Shown here piece after piece: positions 1,369 through 26,700 of a stretch of DNA of 64,000 bases. The translations under genes were made by a program, and so were the position numbers. Under the pieces are notes generated by a model, which was given only the letters and a program-made list of their open reading frames with translations, did no database searches and had not been told where the DNA came from. The stretch lies in NCBI RefSeq assembly GCF_054482525.1, contig NZ_CM137006.1, one strand, 5' to 3'. Each line of letters opens with the position of its first letter. Position 1 is the stretch's first letter.

Positions 1369-2241
1369 ATGACCATCTATACCTTATCTCACGGGCCGCT
1401 AAAGCTGGACGTTTCTGACCGGGGCGGCGTCATCGAAGGCTTCTGGCGTGACGCGACGCCGCTCTTACGTCCCGGTAAAAAAAGCGGTGTGGCAACCGAT
1501 GCCTCTTGTTTTCCGCTGGTGCCGTTTGCAAACCGGGTGAGCGGCAATCGTTTTGTCTGGCAGGGGCGTGAGTATCAACTGCAACCGAATGTTGAGTGGG
1601 ATGCGCACTATCTGCACGGCGACGGCTGGCTGGGGCAGTGGCAATGTGTCTCGCGCAGCGAAGATAGCTTGTGTCTGGTGTATGAACATCGCAGCGGTGT
1701 TTATCACTATCGGGTAAGTCAGGCGTTTCATTTAACGGCAGATACGCTGACGGTGACGCTCTCTGTCACCAATCAAGGGGCAGAGACGCTGCCATTTGGT
1801 ACCGGCTGGCATCCTTATTTTCCGTTGTCACCACAAACGCGGATTCAGGCGCAGGCGAGCGGTTACTGGCTGGAGCGGGAGCAGTGGCTGGCGGGTGAGT
1901 TTTGCGAGCAGCTACCGCAAGAGCTGGATTTCAACCAGCTCGCGCCGTTGCCGTGCCAGTGGGTAAACAATGGCTTTGCCGGATGGAATGGTCAGGCCCG
2001 CATCGAGCAGCCGCAGGAGGGTTATGCCATCATCATGGAAACGACGCCACCTGCACCATGTTATTTCATCTTTGTTTCCGACCCGGCGTTTGATAAAGGA
2101 TATGCGTTTGATTTCTTCTGTCTGGAACCGATGAGCCATGCGCCGGATGACCATCATCGCCCGGAAGGGGGTGATCTCATTGCGCTTGCACCAGGGGAAT
2201 CAACAACTTCAGAGATGTCGTTGCGGGTTGCGTTACTGTAA
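1369..2241 (+). CDS. yphB: Aldose 1-epimerase family protein
   Basis: 290-aa ORF, RBS GGAG upstream, conserved neighbourhood. Confidence 0.75.
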   Translation: MTIYTLSHGPLKLDVSDRGGVIEGFWRDATPLLRPGKKSGVATDASCFPLVPFANRVSGNRFVWQGREYQLQPNVEWDAHYLHGDGWLGQWQCVSRSEDSLCLVYEHRSGVYHYRVSQAFHLTADTLTVTLSVTNQGAETLPFGTGWHPYFPLSPQTRIQAQASGYWLEREQWLAGEFCEQLPQELDFNQLAPLPCQWVNNGFAGWNGQARIEQPQEGYAIIMETTPPAPCYFIFVSDPAFDKGYAFDFFCLEPMSHAPDDHHRPEGGDLIALAPGESTTSEMSLRVALL

Positions 2242-5149: not shown

Positions 5150-7160
<2,011 letters not shown>

Positions 7161-18920: not shown

Positions 18921-19256
18921 ATGCCAAAGATTGTTATTTTGCCTCATCAGGATCTCTGCCCTGATGGCGCTGTTCTGGAAGCGAATAGTGGTGAAACCAT
19001 TCTCGACGTTGCGCTGCGTAACGGTATCGAGATTGAACACGCCTGTGAAAAATCCTGTGCTTGCACCACCTGCCACTGCATCGTTCGCGAAGGTTTTGAC
19101 TCGCTGCCGGAAAGCTCAGAGCAGGAAGACGACATGCTGGACAAAGCCTGGGGACTGGAGCCGGAAAGCCGTTTAAGCTGCCAGGCGCGCGTTACCGACG
19201 AAGATTTAGTGGTCGAAATCCCGCGTTACACTATCAACCATGCGCGTGAGCATTAA
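18921..19256 (+). CDS. fdx: [2Fe-2S] ferredoxin
   Basis: 111 aa; Cys ligands C-x5-C-x2-C…C. Confidence 0.9.
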
Positions 19257-19267
19257 CAGAGGTTAGT

Positions 19268-19468
19268 ATGGGACTTAAGTGGACCGATAGCCGCGAAATT
19301 GGCGAAGCACTGTACGATGCGTATCCCGATCTTGATCCGAAAACGGTTCGATTCACCGATATGCATCAGTGGATTTGCGATCTGGAAGATTTCGACGACG
19401 ACCCGCAGGCATCTAACGAAAAAATCCTCGAAGCGATTTTGTTAGTCTGGCTTGACGAAGCCGAGTGA
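19268..19468 (+). CDS. iscX: Fe-S assembly protein IscX
   Basis: 66 aa acidic protein immediately after fdx. Confidence 0.85.
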
Positions 19469-19712
19469 TTTCCGCGTCATGCTTCACGCCGCAGATGCGT
19501 TGGCTGCGCTCGTTCACCCCAGTCACATAGTTATCTATGCTCCTGGGGCTTCACTCACTTGCCGCGTGATTCGGCCTTTTGGCCTCACCCCTCCGGGGCC
19601 AGCGCAAGCGCTGTTCAAAACGCAATGCGTTTTGTCCTGCAACGCGAATCATTTAGCGGAAAAATCCTGGGGCTGCCAACTGGCGGCCCTTTTACAAAGA
19701 AGGATAACTAGA

Positions 19713-20996
19713 ATGACAGAAGCGATGAAGATTACCCTCTCTACCCAACCTGCCGACGCGCGCTGGGGAGAAAAAGCGACTTACAGCATTAATAATGATG
19801 GCATTACCCTGCATTTGAACGGGACAGACGATCTGGGGCTGATCCAGCGTGCGGCGCGCAAGATTGACGGTCTGGGCATCAAGCATGTTCAGTTAAGCGG
19901 TGAAGACTGGGATGCGGATCGCTGCTGGGCATTCTGGCAAGGTTACAAAGCCCCGAAAGGCACACGTAAAGTGGAGTGGCCGGATCTGGACGATGCCCAG
20001 CGCCAGGAACTGGATAACCGCCTGATGATCATCGACTGGGTGCGTGACACCATTAACGCACCGGCGGAAGAGTTGGGGCCATCGCAACTGGCACAGCGTG
20101 CTGTTGATCTGATCAGCAACGTCGCAGGCGATCGTGTGACTTATCGGATCACCAAAGGTGAAGATCTGCGTGATCAAGGTTATATGGGGCTGCACACGGT
20201 CGGGCGCGGTTCAGAACGTTCCCCGGTATTGCTGGCGCTGGATTACAACCCAACAGGCGATAAAGAAGCGCCAGTGTACGCGTGCCTGGTTGGTAAAGGC
20301 ATCACCTTTGATTCCGGCGGCTACAGTATCAAACAGACCGCATTTATGGACTCGATGAAGTCGGACATGGGCGGCGCGGCAACGGTTACCGGAGCGCTGG
20401 CGTTTGCCATTACGCGCGGACTGAACAAGCGCGTGAAGCTGTTCCTCTGCTGTGCGGATAACCTGATCAGCGGCAACGCGTTCAAACTGGGCGATATTAT
20501 TACCTATCGCAACGGTAAAAAAGTTGAAGTGATGAACACTGATGCGGAAGGGCGTCTGGTGCTGGCCGATGGCCTGATTGATGCCAGTGCGCAGAAACCG
20601 GAACTGATCATTGATGCGGCGACCCTCACCGGGGCGGCGAAAACTGCGCTGGGTAATGATTATCACGCGCTGTTCAGTTTTGACGATGCGCTTGCCGGTC
20701 GCTTGCTGGCGAGTGCCGCGCAGGAGAATGAACCGTTCTGGCGTCTGCCGCTGGCGGAGTTCCACCGCAGCCAGCTGCCGTCTAACTTTGCCGAACTGAA
20801 CAATACCGGAAGCGCGGCGTACCCGGCAGGTGCGAGCACGGCGGCGGGCTTCCTGTCGCACTTTGTTGAGAACTATCAGCAAGGCTGGCTGCATATCGAC
20901 TGCTCGGCGACTTACCGTAAAGCGCCGGTTGAACAGTGGTCTGCGGGTGCTACGGGACTTGGTGTGCGCACGATTGCTAATCTGTTAACGGCGTAA
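19713..20996 (+). CDS. pepB: Peptidase B (M17 leucyl aminopeptidase family)
   Basis: ORF 19452..20996; start at MTEAMKITL (427 aa); M17 motif NTDAEGRL. Confidence 0.85.
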
Positions 20997-20999
20997 ACT

Positions 21000-21105
<106 letters not shown>

Positions 21106-21137
21106 GTGCCCCGAACGTTGAATGAATTGTGGTTCTT

Positions 21138-21914
21138 ATGTCCGAAACAAAAAACGAACTTGAAGATCTGCTGGAAAAAGCAGCAACCGAACCGGCGCAC
21201 CGCCCGGCCTTTTTCCGTACGCTACTGGAATCCACCGTCTGGGTGCCTGGTACGGCGGCGCAGGGCGAGGCTGTGGTTGAAGATAGCGCGCTTGATTTAC
21301 AGCACTGGGAAAAAGAAGATGGCACCAGCGTCATTCCTTTTTTCACCTCGTTAGAAGCACTTCAACAGGCGGTTGAAGACGAACAGGCATTTGTCGTAAT
21401 GCCCGTTCGCACATTGTTTGAGATGACCCTTGGCGAAACGCTCTTCCTTAATGCCAAACTGCCAACCGGTAAAGAATTTATGCCGCGTGAAATCAGTTTG
21501 TTGATTGGTGAAGAAGGAAATCCGCTGAGCAGCCAGGAAGTACTGGAGGGCGGTGAATCGCTGATATTATCGGAAGTCGCAGAGCCACCAGCACAAATGA
21601 TTGATTCACTCACCACCTTATTTAAAACTATTAAGCCGGTGAAGCGTGCTTTTATTTGTTCAATTAAAGAGAACGAAGAGGCACAGCCTAATTTACTTAT
21701 TGGCATTGAAGCCGATGGTGATATCGAAGAAATTATTCAGGCGGCGGGAAGTGTAGCGACCGATACATTACCTGGCGATGAACCCATCGATATTTGTCAG
21801 GTGAAAAAAGGGGAAAAAGGAATTAGCCACTTTATTACCGAACATATTGCGCCATTCTATGAACGTCGCTGGGGTGGCTTTTTGCGTGACTTTAAACAGA
21901 ACCGGATAATCTAA
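21138..21914 (+). CDS. sseB: Enhanced serine sensitivity protein SseB
   Basis: ORF 21129..21914; start at MSETKNEL; conserved neighbourhood. Confidence 0.8.
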   Translation: MSETKNELEDLLEKAATEPAHRPAFFRTLLESTVWVPGTAAQGEAVVEDSALDLQHWEKEDGTSVIPFFTSLEALQQAVEDEQAFVVMPVRTLFEMTLGETLFLNAKLPTGKEFMPREISLLIGEEGNPLSSQEVLEGGESLILSEVAEPPAQMIDSLTTLFKTIKPVKRAFICSIKENEEAQPNLLIGIEADGDIEEIIQAAGSVATDTLPGDEPIDICQVKKGEKGISHFITEHIAPFYERRWGGFLRDFKQNRII

Positions 21915-21945
21915 AATATGCCGCCCCAAAGGGCGGCATTCGGGC
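21915..21945. terminator. Bidirectional rho-independent terminator (sseB and convergent small-ORF transcript)
   Basis: Hairpin gccgccccaaagggcggc flanked by A-run on one side and T-rich on the other. Confidence 0.6.
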
Positions 21946-22083
21946 TTACTTGCTGCTCTGAAGTTTGTTAACCACCAGTAAATTGTTACCGGAGAGACTC
22001 CGGTTATTATTTACCTCGGTTAACAGCGCACCAGAAACAATAAGTACGATACAAAAGCACCGTATCTTCATTGTGCGGTCCAT
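21946..22083 (-). CDS. Small hydrophobic peptide (candidate type I toxin, TimP-like) inside RyfA-like transcript
   Basis: Minus-strand ORF MDRTMKIRCFCIVLIVSGALLTEVNNNRSLSGNNLLVVNKLQSSK; hydrophobic core; followed by terminator hairpin; absent from supplied ORF track (below length cut-off). Confidence 0.4.
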   Translation of the reverse strand: MDRTMKIRCFCIVLIVSGALLTEVNNNRSLSGNNLLVVNKLQSSK

Positions 22084-22665
22084 GCGAAGACCGCATCACG
22101 ACAGCACCACTGGCGATATTGCCGCGATAGCAAGCGCTGAGACGCGCTTGCCCTAACGGTCGCGGAACATCCTTTCCTTGAGCCAGCGCCCGCTTGCGAG
22201 ACGGCGGAAAGGGCCGGTGTCGATAATACGCTAAATAAACAATGATTACTCTCTTTCGCTTGACAAAAAGAGAGTTACTGGCGAGTATTGTGTCCGCTGA
22301 GACGCGCTTGCATTACTACGGTAATACAATCTGCTGGAAAGGCCGCGAACCAAACCAGCAACAAATAACCGCCTGATTTTGGCGGTTTTTTGTTGCTTAA
22401 AGAAAGTGAATTTACATGTTTAAGTAATATCTTTTACCGGTTAGTATTTTTAATATTGAGCGGGATTTGTTTATATTTGTCTGAATTCGGACTGATAAGC
22501 CAAATGAATTCAAAATCTATCCTTTTTTATCTACTTGACATCGTTGATGCATAAAGCGAGTATTGAGTAGACGAGATACACTTGCAGTAATACAATCTGC
22601 TGGAAAGGCCGCGAACCAGACCAGCAATAAAAAACCGCCAAATTCGGCGGTTTTTTATTGCCTGT
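22084..22665. ncRNA. ryfA: RyfA-family small RNA locus with repeated sRNA-like units and terminator hairpins
   Basis: No long ORF; three related units sharing gctgagacgcgcttgc / aatacaatctgctggaaaggccgcgaacca; hairpin+U-run terminators at 22363-22392 and 22630-22662. Confidence 0.5.
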
Positions 22666-22672
22666 AAAAAGC

Positions 22673-23518
22673 TTATTTTACGGGCTCAACCGGTAAATCT
22701 GCTCGTGCGCCCCATTCACTCCATGCGCCGTCGTACAGTTTCACGTTTGGCACATCCAGCGTCGCGAGTGCCAACAAAACCACGGCTGCCGTTACACCAG
22801 AGCCGCAGCTGACGATAATCGGTTTGTCATAGCTGACGCCGCGACTAAAAAATATCGCATCCAGTTCATCGGTCGTTTTTAGTTCGCCTTCGCGCACCAG
22901 TTCCGTCCACGGAACGTTCAATGCACCGGGAATATGTCCGCGACGTAAACCTGGGCGAGGTTCATCAACTTCTGCGTTAAAACGTGCAGCCGGGCGGGCA
23001 TCAATAATTTGCGCCGTATTTTCATGGCTTGCCAATAACACATCGGTGACTTTCACCACGGCTTCAGGATTAAACTTGGCGTTAAACTCTCCTTCCGGCA
23101 GCTCTACTGCACCTTCTTCTAACAGCAGATCATCGCGCTGCCAGCCTGCAAGTCCACCCCCCAGAATCGACACTTTCTCTACACCAAAGGTGCGCAGCAT
23201 CCACCATGCTCGTGGGGCTGAGAAAAGATTACCTTCGTCATAGACAATCAGGTGCTTATCCTGGTTAACGCCTAACTCACGCATCGCCACGGCGAACGTT
23301 TCCGGGCGCGGCAGCATGTGCGGAAGCGGGGAAGTGTGATCAGAAAGCGCTTCGATATCAAAAAACACTGCGCCGGGAATATGTCCATTCAGATACTCCT
23401 GAGCAACGTTACGATCTTCCTGTCCAGGCGACGCCATGCGGGCATCGATAATCTGAATTTCCGGGTCATCAATATGTTCGGCGAGCCAGTCGGCTCCTAC
23501 AAACCATGTCGTGGACAT
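22673..23518 (-). CDS. sseA: 3-mercaptopyruvate sulfurtransferase (tandem rhodanese)
   Basis: ORF 22673..23677; start at MSTTWFVGADWL (281 aa); active-site CGSGVTA. Confidence 0.85.
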   Translation of the reverse strand: MSTTWFVGADWLAEHIDDPEIQIIDARMASPGQEDRNVAQEYLNGHIPGAVFFDIEALSDHTSPLPHMLPRPETFAVAMRELGVNQDKHLIVYDEGNLFSAPRAWWMLRTFGVEKVSILGGGLAGWQRDDLLLEEGAVELPEGEFNAKFNPEAVVKVTDVLLASHENTAQIIDARPAARFNAEVDEPRPGLRRGHIPGALNVPWTELVREGELKTTDELDAIFFSRGVSYDKPIIVSCGSGVTAAVVLLALATLDVPNVKLYDGAWSEWGARADLPVEPVK

Positions 23519-23724
23519 AGGCATCTCCATTTTTGCCGGGGTTAGGCTAAATTGTCGGATGTTTAGTGAAATGCGACAAGCAAAAGAGGCTGATTTGGCT
23601 GTCTGAGCCACAATTCTCACTAAAATTCGGATTGTATGGGCGTGATACTGAATTACATAACGTAAATTCTCACGCATAATAATTATTCGACGTTGCTAAC
23701 GGGCCATTGTGGCAGGGATGAAAA

Positions 23725-26700
23725 ATGAAAAAGTTACGCGTAGCCGCCTGCATGCTAATGCTGGCGCTGGCAGGGTGCGACAACAACGATAACGCGCCAA
23801 CAGCGGTGAAAAAAGATGCGCCTTCTGAAGTTACTAAAGCGGCCTCTTCAGAAAACGTGAGTTCAGCAAAACTTTCCGCGCCGGAGCGACAAAAACTGGC
23901 CCAACAGAGTGCCGGTAAGGCGCTGACATTGCTGGATCTCTCTGAAGTTCAACTTGATGGCGCAGCCGCGCTGGTGCTGACGTTCTCCATTCCTCTCGAC
24001 CCGGATCAGGATTTCTCACGCGTTATCCATGTCGTCGATAAGAAAAGCGGCAAAGTGGATGGTGCCTGGGAGCTGTCAGATAATCTTAAAGAGTTGCGTT
24101 TACGCCACCTCGAACCGAAACGTGATTTGATCGTCACTATTGGCAAGGAGGTCAAAGCACTCAACAACGCAACCTTCAGTAAAGATTACGAAAAAACTAT
24201 AACTACCCGCGATATCCAACCCAGCGTCGGTTTTGCCAGCCGTGGTTCGTTGTTACCTGGTAAAGTTATTGAAGGGCTGCCGGTAATGGCGCTCAACGTT
24301 AACAATGTTGATGTTAACTTCTTCCGTGTGAAGCCCGAATCTCTGCCTGCATTCATTAGCCAATGGGAATACCGCAATTCGCTGGCGAACTGGCAGTCTG
24401 AAAAACTGCTGCAGATGGCGGATCTGGTTTATACCGGACGGTTTGATCTCAATCCTGCGCGTAACACCCGTGAAAAATTATTGCTGCCGCTGGGTGATAT
24501 CAAACCGCTTCAGCAGGCAGGCGTGTATCTGGCTGTGATGAATCAGGCTGGACGTTACGATTACAGTAATCCCGCGACGCTGTTTACGTTAAGTGATATC
24601 GGCGTTTCAGCTCACCGTTATCACAATCGTCTGGATATCTTTACCCAAAGTCTGGAAAACGGCGCGGCCCAGCAAGGAATAGAAGTCTCTTTATTAAATG
24701 AGAAAGGGCAGACTCTGACTCAGGCAACCAGTGATGCTCAGGGGCATGTGCAGCTGGAAAATGATAAAAACGCGGCATTACTGCTGGCGCGTAAAGACGG
24801 TCAGACAACGCTACTCGATTTAAAACTTCCGGCGCTGGACTTAGCAGAATTTAACATTGCTGGCGCGCCAGGCTATAGCAAACAGTTTTTCATGTTTGGC
24901 CCGCGCGATCTTTATCGCCCTGGTGAAACAGTCATCCTCAATGGTTTATTGCGTGATGCAGATGGTAAAGCATTGCCCGATCAACCCATCAAGTTAGACG
25001 TGATTAAACCCGACGGGCAGGTACTCAGGAGCGTCGTTAGTCAGCCGGAGAATGGCCTCTACCACTTTACCTGGCCACTCGATAGCAATGCGGCAACCGG
25101 TATGTGGCATATTCGCGCTAACACGGGCGATAACCAGTACCGGATGTGGGATTTCCACGTCGAAGATTTTATGCCAGAGCGCATGGCGCTGAATCTGACC
25201 GGTGAGAAAACCCCGCTAACGCCGAAAGATGAAGTGAAATTCTTCGTGGTGGGGTACTACCTGTATGGTGCGCCTGCTAATGGTAATACTTTGCAAGGGC
25301 AACTTTTCCTGCGCCCACTGCGTGAAGCTGTGTCAGCCTTACCTGGTTTCGAATTCGGCGATATAGCTGCCGAAAATCTTTCCCGCACGCTGGATGAAGT
25401 TCAGTTGACGCTGGATGATAAAGGGCGTGGCGAAGTTTCTACAGAAAGCCAGTGGAAGGAAACGCATTCCCCATTGCAGGTTATTTTCCAGGGTAGTTTG
25501 CTGGAATCGGGCGGTCGCCCGGTGACGCGCCGCGCTGAGCAGGCTATCTGGCCTGCCGATGCATTGCCGGGGATCCGTCCGCAGTTCGCCTCGAAATCGG
25601 TTTACGATTATCGCACTGACAGCACGGTGAAACAGCCCATTGTTGATGAAGACAGTAACGCCGCTTTTGACATCGTTTATAGCGATGCGCAAGGCGTGAA
25701 AAAAGCCGTGTCGGGCTTGCAGGTGCGCCTGATTCGCGAACGCCGCGATTACTACTGGAACTGGTCAGAAGATGAAGGCTGGCAATCACAGTTTGATCAA
25801 AAAGATCTGATTGAAAATGAACAAACTCTGGATCTGAAAGCGGACGAAACCGGCAAGGTCAGTTTCCCGGTAGAGTGGGGCGCTTATCGTCTGGAAGTCA
25901 AAGCGCCGAATGAAGCGGTCAGTAGTGTGCGTTTCTGGGCTGGCTATAGCTGGCAGGACAACAGCGACGGGAGCGGTGCCGTGCGACCCGACCGTGTCAC
26001 GCTGAAACTGGATAAAGCCAGTTATCGCCCTGGCGATACCATTAAGTTGCATATTGCCGCGCCAACGGCGGGTAAAGGTTATGCGATGGTCGAGTCCAGT
26101 GAAGGGCCGCTGTGGTGGCAAGAGATTGATGTTTCGGCTCAAGGGCTGGATCTGACGATTCCGGTCGATAAAACCTGGAATCGTCATGATCTGTATTTAA
26201 GTACGCTGGTGGTACGTCCTGGCGATAAATCTCGCTCCGCGACGCCAAAACGCGCGGTTGGGGTGTTGCATCTGCCGCTTGGTGATGAAAACCGTCGCCT
26301 CGATCTGGCGCTGGAAACCCCCACCCAAATGCGCCCCAATCAGCCATTAACCGTGAAAATTAAAGCCAGCAATAAAAACGGTGAGATGCCAAAACAGGTG
26401 AATGTGCTGGTGTCTGCCGTTGATAGCGGTGTGCTGAATATTACTGATTACGTTACCCCCGATCCGTGGCAGGCGTTCTTTGGTCAGAAACGCTATGGTG
26501 CAGACATTTACGATATTTACGGTCAGGTCATTGAAGGTCAGGGGCGTCTGGCAGCTCTGCGTTTTGGTGGCGATGGTGATGAGCTGAAACGTGGTGGTAA
26601 ACCGCCGGTCAATCACGTCAAAATTGTCGCGCAGCAGGCGCTGCCGGTAACGCTCAACGAACAGGGTGAAGGCTCGGTTACACTGCCGATTGGTGATTTT

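Follow-up and report, generated by a model that had tools for sequence, protein, structure and literature searches.

A likely variant timP/timR (ryfA) toxin-antitoxin locus with one toxin gene and two TimR-type small RNA genes in the sseB-sseA gap

A gap of 758 nucleotides (nt) that lies between two genes and holds no long open reading frame (ORF) raises the question of what it encodes. We addressed this question for region 21915-22672 of a 64,000-nt stretch of DNA (hereafter the window) from contig NZ_CM137006.1 of NCBI RefSeq assembly GCF_054482525.1, in which the gap is flanked by sseB (plus strand, stop at 21914) and sseA (minus strand, from 22673). A first-pass annotation, made from the letters alone, had described the gap as free of long ORFs, and indeed the longest one inside it encodes 63 amino acids (aa); terminator-like sites, by contrast with the 1.3 expected, numbered seven. 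The region very probably holds the type I toxin-antitoxin pair timP/timR (ryfA) of the Escherichia coli chromosome, in a variant with one toxin gene, timP, and two genes for small RNAs (sRNAs) of the TimR type, which we refer to as T1 and T2. Homology, conservation of RNA structure, seed/target complementarity with covariation, and the duplication history of the locus support this reading directly.

The whole region is 100% identical to E. coli PCN033 (NZ_CP006632.1), and all but one of the 5,426 complete E. coli genomes (5,425) have it in one form or another. RefSeq annotates timP in the identical stretch of PCN033, flanked by sseB and sseA, and ryfA (b4440), timP (b4812) and timR (b4811) are annotated at the corresponding position of MG1655. 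Because both sets of annotations coincide with the region, this is a named and already known locus; it has been described and annotated, and its mechanism has been dissected in Salmonella. The value of the present analysis is thus practical, for annotation and experimental design, and it is of little weight as a discovery, although some modest features of the locus may be new to the literature: specificity classes within one species, cognate and orphan units that appear swapped between strains, an orphan allele (D) of the sRNA, and deletions across the seed/target repeat.

The toxin gene and its leader

On the minus strand, the Rfam ryfA family RF00126 matched over the full model (positions 1-296) with 309.3 bits (gathering score 80; E=4.6e-86). 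This was the only RF00126 match in the scanned 7-kilobase (kb) stretch 19000-26000, and the window ryfA aligns end to end with MG1655 ryfA b4440. The E-values of the Rfam and covariance-model matches ranged from 1e-15 to 1e-86. The encoded protein matched NCBIfam NF040796 (toxic_TimP) with 83.9 bits (cutoff 45) over residues 1-40 of 41. Together with the MG1655 and PCN033 annotation, these matches support the assignment to ryfA and TimP/TimR that the first-pass annotation had made from the position of the gap.

The 45-codon minus-strand ORF of that annotation is present at 21946-22083 (MDRTMKIRCFC...), and it is from the second Met that the NF040796 match starts. Rahnella and Erwinia have AAG in place of the upstream ATG (22083) of the 45-aa form, and since that start is not conserved, the product is most likely the 41-aa form that starts at 22071. 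Comparative loci were collected by a search with a degenerate pattern for stem-loop 4 of the mRNA leader, a GC-rich palindrome of low specificity; 17 of the 120 loci among the matches listed were ryfA loci, Salmonella and Shigella not being among them. The first-pass annotation had made its proposal hang on conservation of the ORF in related ryfA loci, and the frame was found to be kept, at 38-42 aa, in six genera (Escherichia, Citrobacter, Superficieibacter, Yersinia, Rahnella and Erwinia). The N-terminus is conserved across these genera (MK..CIVL.VSGAL) and the C-terminal half is variable; by inspection, an MKIR n-region is followed by CFCIVLIVSGALL, again conserved across genera, and this hydrophobic N-terminus resembles a signal sequence. 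The timP body was found in 5,425 of the 5,426 complete E. coli genomes, at one place in PCN033.

The ryfA transcript would end at an intrinsic terminator (Table 1), the hairpin of which lies 4 nt past the sseB stop with its U-run on the minus strand. The first-pass annotation had considered this terminator to be shared with sseB, which holds for its position only, because no good T-run follows the hairpin on the plus strand. At the other end of the gene, the putative ryfA promoter agrees in position with the K-12 ryfA 5′ end.

We then compared an alignment of 15 distinct 5′ untranslated region (UTR) sequences with the published architecture of the leader, which consists of stem-loops SL1, SL2 and SL3, an SL4 in which the Shine-Dalgarno (SD) sequence is trapped, and a pseudoknot between SL1 and SL3. 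Across these 15 5′ UTRs, 96.9% of the cells could pair, compared to 36-49% when the partners were slid by 1-3 columns. The pseudoknot helix was 100% paired, with compensatory changes in three pairs, and the 3′ arm of SL4 holds an SD-like GGA just upstream of the ATG at 22071. In Salmonella, SL4 sequesters the SD, the SL2 loop is the site protected by TimR (PMC11228461), and SL1-SL4 together with the pseudoknot elements govern timP translation (PMC11228461, PMC13000454).

Table 1. Coordinates of the features of the locus in the window, with the basis of each assignment
Feature	Coordinates	Strand	Basis
ryfA/timP mRNA, ~305 nt	21913..22217	-	Rfam RF00126
Intrinsic terminator of ryfA/timP	21918..21939	-	nine-pair stem (7 G-C), then ATTTTAGATT; within Rfam ryfA model
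timP coding sequence, 41 aa + stop, MKIRCFCIVLIVSGALLTEVNNNRSLSGNNLLVVNKLQSSK	21946..22071	-	RefSeq WP_242880333.1 (PCN033), NCBIfam NF040796
SL4	22075..22094	-	7/7 pairs invariant in 15 sequences
SL3	22095..22128	-	Rfam model and 15-sequence alignment
SL2	22130..22151	-	helix 95.8% paired, 15 sequences
TimR target in SL2, RNA 5′-GCAAGCGCGUCUCAGCG-3′	22135..22151	-	exact 17-nt direct repeat with T1 5′ end
SL1	22172..22211	-	helices 1-2 98-100% paired
Pseudoknot SL1-SL3, 7 base pairs	22182-22188 with 22108-22114	-	15/15 paired
Putative ryfA promoter, -35 GAGTAA 22246-22251, 17-nt spacer, -10 TATTAT 22223-22228	22223..22251	-	sequence reading
Putative T1 promoter: TTGACA, 17-nt spacer, GAGTAT	22260..22288	+	sequence reading
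T1, TimR antitoxin sRNA, ~97 nt, seed 22295-22311	22295..22391	+	TimR covariance model
T1 terminator, hairpin + T6	22367..22391	+	terminator scan
Rfam 'IS128' match (AT-rich spacer and reverse strand of T1 terminator)	22349..22526	-	RF00125, 178.8 bits
AT-rich spacer	22392..22534		
Putative T2 promoter: TTGACA, 17-nt spacer, GAGTAT	22535..22563	+	sequence reading
T2, 'D' allele, TimR-like unit	22569..22656	+	TimR covariance model, 77.6 bits
T2 terminator, hairpin + T6	22629..22656	+	terminator scan

T1 and the control of timP

Thirteen TimR homologues, none of them from the window, were used to build a covariance model, and its search across the 64 kb gave exactly two full-length matches, T1 and T2, both on the plus strand and hence divergent from the timP ORF. 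These are the two ~95-nt units, each with a hairpin and T6, among the three partially repeated units of the first-pass annotation (repeats 22321-22415 and 22587-22681, 95 nt and 78% identical); the third proved to be the 17-nt sRNA target site inside the ryfA 5′ UTR. T1 matched the model over its full length with 92.9 bits (E=1e-18), and its architecture of seed, TimR stem-loops 1 and 2 and intrinsic terminator is complete. In K-12, a promoter arrangement like that of T1 lies upstream of the annotated timR, the 5′ end of which falls 7 nt after the -10 element and coincides with the first position of the seed.

The seed of T1 is an exact direct repeat of 17 nt within the ryfA 5′ UTR. Since ryfA and T1 are divergent, this direct repeat in the DNA means perfect complementarity between the RNAs, and the first 17 nt of T1 form 17 of 17 pairs with SL2, in its 5′ arm and loop. 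Duplex energies of the full-length sRNAs against ryfA (duplexfold) were set aside in favor of seed-restricted energies, because pairing extends along both whole RNAs and inflates the full-length values. The seed-restricted T1 duplex had an energy of -37.1 kcal/mol, compared to -19.9±2.8 kcal/mol for shuffled seeds, none of which reached it in 500 trials. The same relationship holds elsewhere: in 15 genomes of six genera, 15-17 of the 17 positions are paired between the resident seed and its loop, with loop positions that carry up to four different bases, whereas permuted partners averaged 13.5, with 15.0 as the highest value, and the observed mean was not reached in any of 2,000 permutations. 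Seed/loop duplexes within a genome ranged from -36 to -44 kcal/mol, and the energy matrix was strongest on its diagonal. This seed/target covariation was reported by Andresen et al. (Fig. 8B, PMC7667032) and is reproduced here with more taxa; it also agrees with the footprint of TimR on the SL2 loop (PMC11228461). Of the two units in the window, only the ryfA-proximal T1 is cognate to the mRNA of the resident toxin.

The K-12 copy of T1 is 95% identical to that of the window and corresponds by position to the ECS011/IS129 RNA, which was detected in K-12 by northern blotting at ~95-100 nt (PMC3175480). That this positional homologue was detected speaks indirectly for transcription of T1, and ryfA and TimR RNAs have also been detected in CFT073 and CH138 (PMC13188913). 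Between the divergent ryfA and T1 promoters, an inverted repeat at 22248-22275 (ACTCTCTTT..AAAGAGAGT) spans the T1 -35 element TTGACA; it is kept in A/B-type loci (K-12, E. whittamii), is absent from the O157-type promoter, and could be an operator or a transcript hairpin.

By homology with Salmonella TimP/TimR, the mechanism of which has been worked out (PMC7667032, PMC11228461, PMC13000454), the timP SD would be locked in SL4 and translation would require the SL1-SL3 pseudoknot. The extreme 5′ end of T1 would bind the SL2 loop of the pseudoknot-containing conformer of the mRNA and would thereby destabilize the pseudoknot, such that initiation would not occur and TimP synthesis would be blocked. 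An excess of TimP would lodge in the inner membrane and render it leaky. We thus infer that the locus is transcribed in the window strain, that the E. coli peptide is translated and toxic, and that T1 represses it.

The Salmonella Typhimurium timP/timR pair (formerly ryfA/STnc2070; Andresen et al. 2020, PMC7667032) belongs to the same RF00126 mRNA and NF040796 protein families, and the window has the sseB-sseA neighborhood that the same paper states for E. coli K-12 timP. In both systems a divergent, non-overlapping sRNA has a 5′ end complementary to the SL2 loop, SL4 traps the SD, and the pseudoknot covaries. However, the window peptide is 41 aa long rather than 38 and its C-terminal half has diverged, the seed/target sequence differs but covaries, and the window has, in addition, an AT-rich spacer and a further TimR-like unit that is non-cognate. 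The pairs tisB/istR-1, dinQ/agrB, zorO/orzO and shoB/ohsC likewise combine a small hydrophobic toxin with an sRNA that adjoins, rather than opposes, the toxin gene and that pairs over a short stretch of the 5′ UTR, but they have no sequence relationship with the locus (AgrB scored 29 bits, below its gathering score of 40). Unlike in those divergent type I pairs, the timP mRNA is activated by a structural switch and not by processing, and TimP has a Sec-type signal (PMC7667032, PMC13000454).

The alternative that survives best is that RyfA is mainly a non-coding regulatory sRNA with roles in stress resistance, fimbriae, biofilm and virulence, for which TimR (RyfB) would serve as a titrating anti-sRNA, and that the ORF is incidental in E. 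coli. We consider this possible but rather doubtful. Deletion of ryfA has phenotypes in uropathogenic and avian pathogenic E. coli, the ryfA-timR double mutant resembles the wild type and timR deletion has minor effects (PMC13188913, PMC8205139), and RyfA1 overproduction in Shigella lowers ompC (PMC5333039), all of which would suit an RNA regulator. Several points, moreover, weigh against the toxin-antitoxin reading itself. Within Escherichia, timP has 9 variable sites at the first codon position, 6 at the second and 5 at the third, and synonymous changes do not outnumber non-synonymous ones, although these numbers are small; given that there is no third-position bias, purifying selection on the C-terminal half of TimP looks weak. 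Toxicity, membrane targeting and repression by TimR have been shown for the 38-aa protein of Salmonella and not for the 41-aa one of E. coli, and according to one study it is still to be settled if ryfA of E. coli codes for a toxic peptide (PMC13188913). In avian pathogenic E. coli, deletion of timR had little effect (PMC13188913), and RyfA1 protein was undetectable in Shigella (Fris et al., PMC5333039). Furthermore, the 5′ ends of T1 and T2 were set by analogy with the K-12 annotation, and the view of T2 as non-functional, taken up below, would derive from its poor pairing and lost hairpin.

Because the selection test within Escherichia is weak or uninformative, the case for coding rests on the Salmonella experiments and on a frame that is conserved between genera. 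In all six genera, the ORF has kept its frame, start and stop despite 25-30% nucleotide divergence, and the hydrophobic N-terminus is conserved with them. The elements that control translation in Salmonella are all conserved in the window, including SL4 with its seven invariant pairs and the covarying pseudoknot, and Salmonella TimP is translated, membrane-located and toxic (PMC7667032). These findings argue for timP as a coding gene. The roles of regulatory RNA and toxin are nevertheless compatible, and a dual-function RNA is a possible middle ground.

T2 and the history of the duplicated locus

The second unit, T2, differs from T1 in its seed and in its first hairpin. In the covariance model alignment, its TimR stem-loop 1 is replaced by 2 nt, and its seed (AGACGAGAUACACUUGC) differs from the A-type seed, to which that of T1 belongs, at 7 of 18 positions. 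The T2 seed forms 12 of 17 pairs with SL2, in an interrupted duplex of -16.7 kcal/mol, a value reached by 102 of 500 shuffles (-14.7±2.4 kcal/mol); against the whole ryfA mRNA, its energy was matched by 81 of 300 shuffles, and its best energy against any sampled ryfA was -24.9 kcal/mol. The T2 allele occurs in 394 genomes, in 388 of them at 99% identity or more. A synthetic ryfA query that carried the site complementary to the T2 seed, run in distant mode against the 5,426 complete E. coli genomes, found no cognate "ryfA-D" allele; its best full-length matches, at 93.8%, were ordinary A-type ryfA. T2 thus looks like a non-cognate orphan that is structurally reduced. Weak Rfam matches over T2 (AgrB, rimP leader, RNAI and Leu leader) were below their gathering scores, fell on the terminator hairpin and were rejected.

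It is conceivable, though unlikely, that T2 has been retargeted, that is, that it is an orphan TimR paralogue with a new seed that regulates another mRNA in trans. The promoter and terminator of T2 appear intact, its seed has moved away from the A type with no constraint on frame or structure evident, no ryfA allele to match it was found, and TimR without RyfA has been suggested to have regulatory effects of its own (PMC13188913). On the other hand, the loss of stem-loop 1 resembles decay, and K-12-type genomes offer the mirror case, in which it is the ryfA-proximal A-type unit that is non-cognate, a pattern that fits neutral leftovers of recombination between alleles.

Even less likely, in our judgment, is that T2 works alongside T1 as an antitoxin against the resident timP and provides redundant or differently regulated repression. 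T2 does keep the promoter-like TTGACA-17-GAGTAT arrangement, the TimR core (77.6 bits with the TimR model) and a strong terminator, and it is nearly invariant in 388 genomes, but identity across the 394 genomes may merely mirror shared ancestry. The interrupted pairing, the duplex energies within reach of shuffled seeds and the missing stem-loop 1 all speak against repression of the resident mRNA, and in Shigella, RyfB1 discriminates between RyfA1 and RyfA2, which differ from one another less than in the case of T2 and SL2 (PMC5333039). A non-cognate orphan, possibly non-functional, is therefore the reading of T2 that we retain.

The origin of such a unit can be read from other strains. A single TimR is found in the genera outside Escherichia, in E. 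whittamii and in most E. coli. In E. coli 33E (NZ_CM147847.1, locus 1000-2200), the order is ryfA(B) with TimR(B), a spacer, an 87-nt fragment of the sseB 3′ end, ryfA(C) with TimR(C), and sseA; two timP coding sequences are annotated there, and each has its cognate TimR unit, of specificity B and C, respectively. K-12 has lost the stretch from the sseB fragment to about nt 17 of the second ryfA and keeps a 46-nt remnant of that gene, with ~17 nt and the promoter, whereas the window is without it. The timP body was found at 5,588 places in the 5,425 genomes, which implies that ~160 extra copies persist. The first-pass annotation had suggested local duplication of sRNA or antitoxin elements, and the complete tandem of 33E and the K-12 remnant bear this out: T2 is the relic of a tandem duplication of a module composed of the sseB 3′ end, ryfA and timR, the toxin partner of which was deleted.

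A duplication at the same locus is known from Shigella dysenteriae, in which the siblings ryfA1/ryfA2 and ryfB1/ryfB2 form a tandem (Fris et al. 2017, PMC5333039), the "variable region" of ryfA is the sRNA pairing site, and the sRNA is partner-specific. The two sRNA units of the window have the same kind of origin, and both modules are still present in E. coli 33E. Unlike S. dysenteriae, however, the window has one ryfA, and its second module is an sRNA gene with a mismatched seed and without stem-loop 1.

At least three classes of cognate TimR seed exist in E. coli: class A (CGCTGAGACGCGCTTGC; for example in the window, SCU-116 and strain 10153), class B (GCTGTGAAGCACCTGC; K-12) and class C (CACTGTGGGGTGCCTGC; O157). 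An A-type unit is present in 4,540 genomes. The exact A-type SL2 50-mer was counted in 1,093 genomes, which is a lower bound because one single-nucleotide polymorphism in the flank breaks the 28-nt word, as was seen in two loci.

The MG1655 locus has the same genes in the same order as the window, with ~90% identity across the gap and with two units and the IS128 spacer, but the units have exchanged specificities. The annotated timR of K-12 is the sseA-proximal unit, and it is this one that is cognate (-39.4 kcal/mol), while the ryfA-proximal unit has an A seed and is non-cognate (-26.9 kcal/mol), the reverse of the window. In the extracted MG1655 locus, this TimR-like unit beside ryfA (1679-1783, minus strand) is unannotated, and its seed fits the PCN033-type ryfA and not K-12's own. 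In the window strain, the functional TimR would be the ryfA-proximal one, and a "timR deletion" designed from K-12 would remove the non-cognate copy. Weak phenotypes of timR deletion in E. coli should be read against which unit was deleted.

In four taxa, the ryfA body is fused to TimR at the ~17-nt seed/target repeat: E. coli 06-00048 (locus ~2721), Citrobacter amalonaticus, Yersinia similis and Y. aleksiciae. These loci have lost ryfA SL1 and the two promoters, as expected of the product of recombination between direct repeats. In E. coli 06-00048, timP is still annotated in RefSeq and an IS3 element lies in the TimR terminator. A junction query for this seed/target deletion gave 06-00048 as its only single-piece match; coverage of the query is not diagnostic, because the two halves of intact loci are joined into one place.

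One tentative account, which we hold to be rather improbable as a whole, would unite these observations. E. coli SL2/seed pairs would form discrete lock-and-key classes, at least three of them cognate, along with the orphan D, and duplication, recombination and decay would produce mosaics of one toxin with an extra non-cognate sRNA in ~40% of complete genomes. On this view, T2 would be an sRNA retargeted to act in trans, or else a reserve of other antitoxin specificities, and the 17-nt repeat would be a recombination substrate through which both promoters were deleted independently in 06-00048, C. amalonaticus, Y. similis and Y. aleksiciae.

The AT-rich spacer and neighboring sites

Between T1 and T2, the Rfam family IS128 (RF00125) matched with 178.8 bits (gathering score 80), the window lacking 30 nt of the model. 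The IS128 spacer is present in 2,153 of the 5,426 genomes, and in strain 33E it lies at the junction of the tandem duplication. That the minus-strand "IS128" RNA (22526 to 22349) is a real sRNA gene of the spacer is very improbable despite this score, since strand-specific probes in K-12 detected the opposite-strand IS129/ECS011 and not IS128 (Shinhara et al., PMC3175480), IS128 is no longer annotated in MG1655, its start in K-12 would coincide with the promoter of the ryfA remnant that is absent from the window, and its hairpin is followed on the minus strand by ATTTGTTG, a poor U-tract. IS128 is thus probably not a gene, and the Rfam family appears to represent the reverse strand of a TimR paralogue joined to the duplication-junction spacer. 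An ORF of 54 aa with a hydrophobic core and a TTG start in the same spacer (22390-22554, plus strand) was also rejected; its frame is broken by an indel in 33E, and core residues are changed in K-12.

Three further observations concern other sites. In NZ_CP178659.1 (E. coli VTB96933v, a chicken isolate), the match to the ryfA locus overlaps an annotated IS200/IS605 tnpA. Between pepB and sseB, a palindrome that resembles a repetitive extragenic palindromic element (GGCCGGATAAGGCGTTTACGCCGCATCCGGC) lies at 20991-21035, with sub-threshold naRNA4 matches on both strands. Upstream of pepB, at 19570-19642 on the minus strand, a run of hairpins matched the Rfam family AaHKsRNA22 (RF02902) with 45.3 bits, compared to a gathering score of 39.8; by the gene order of related strains, this site is probably in the iscX-pepB spacer.

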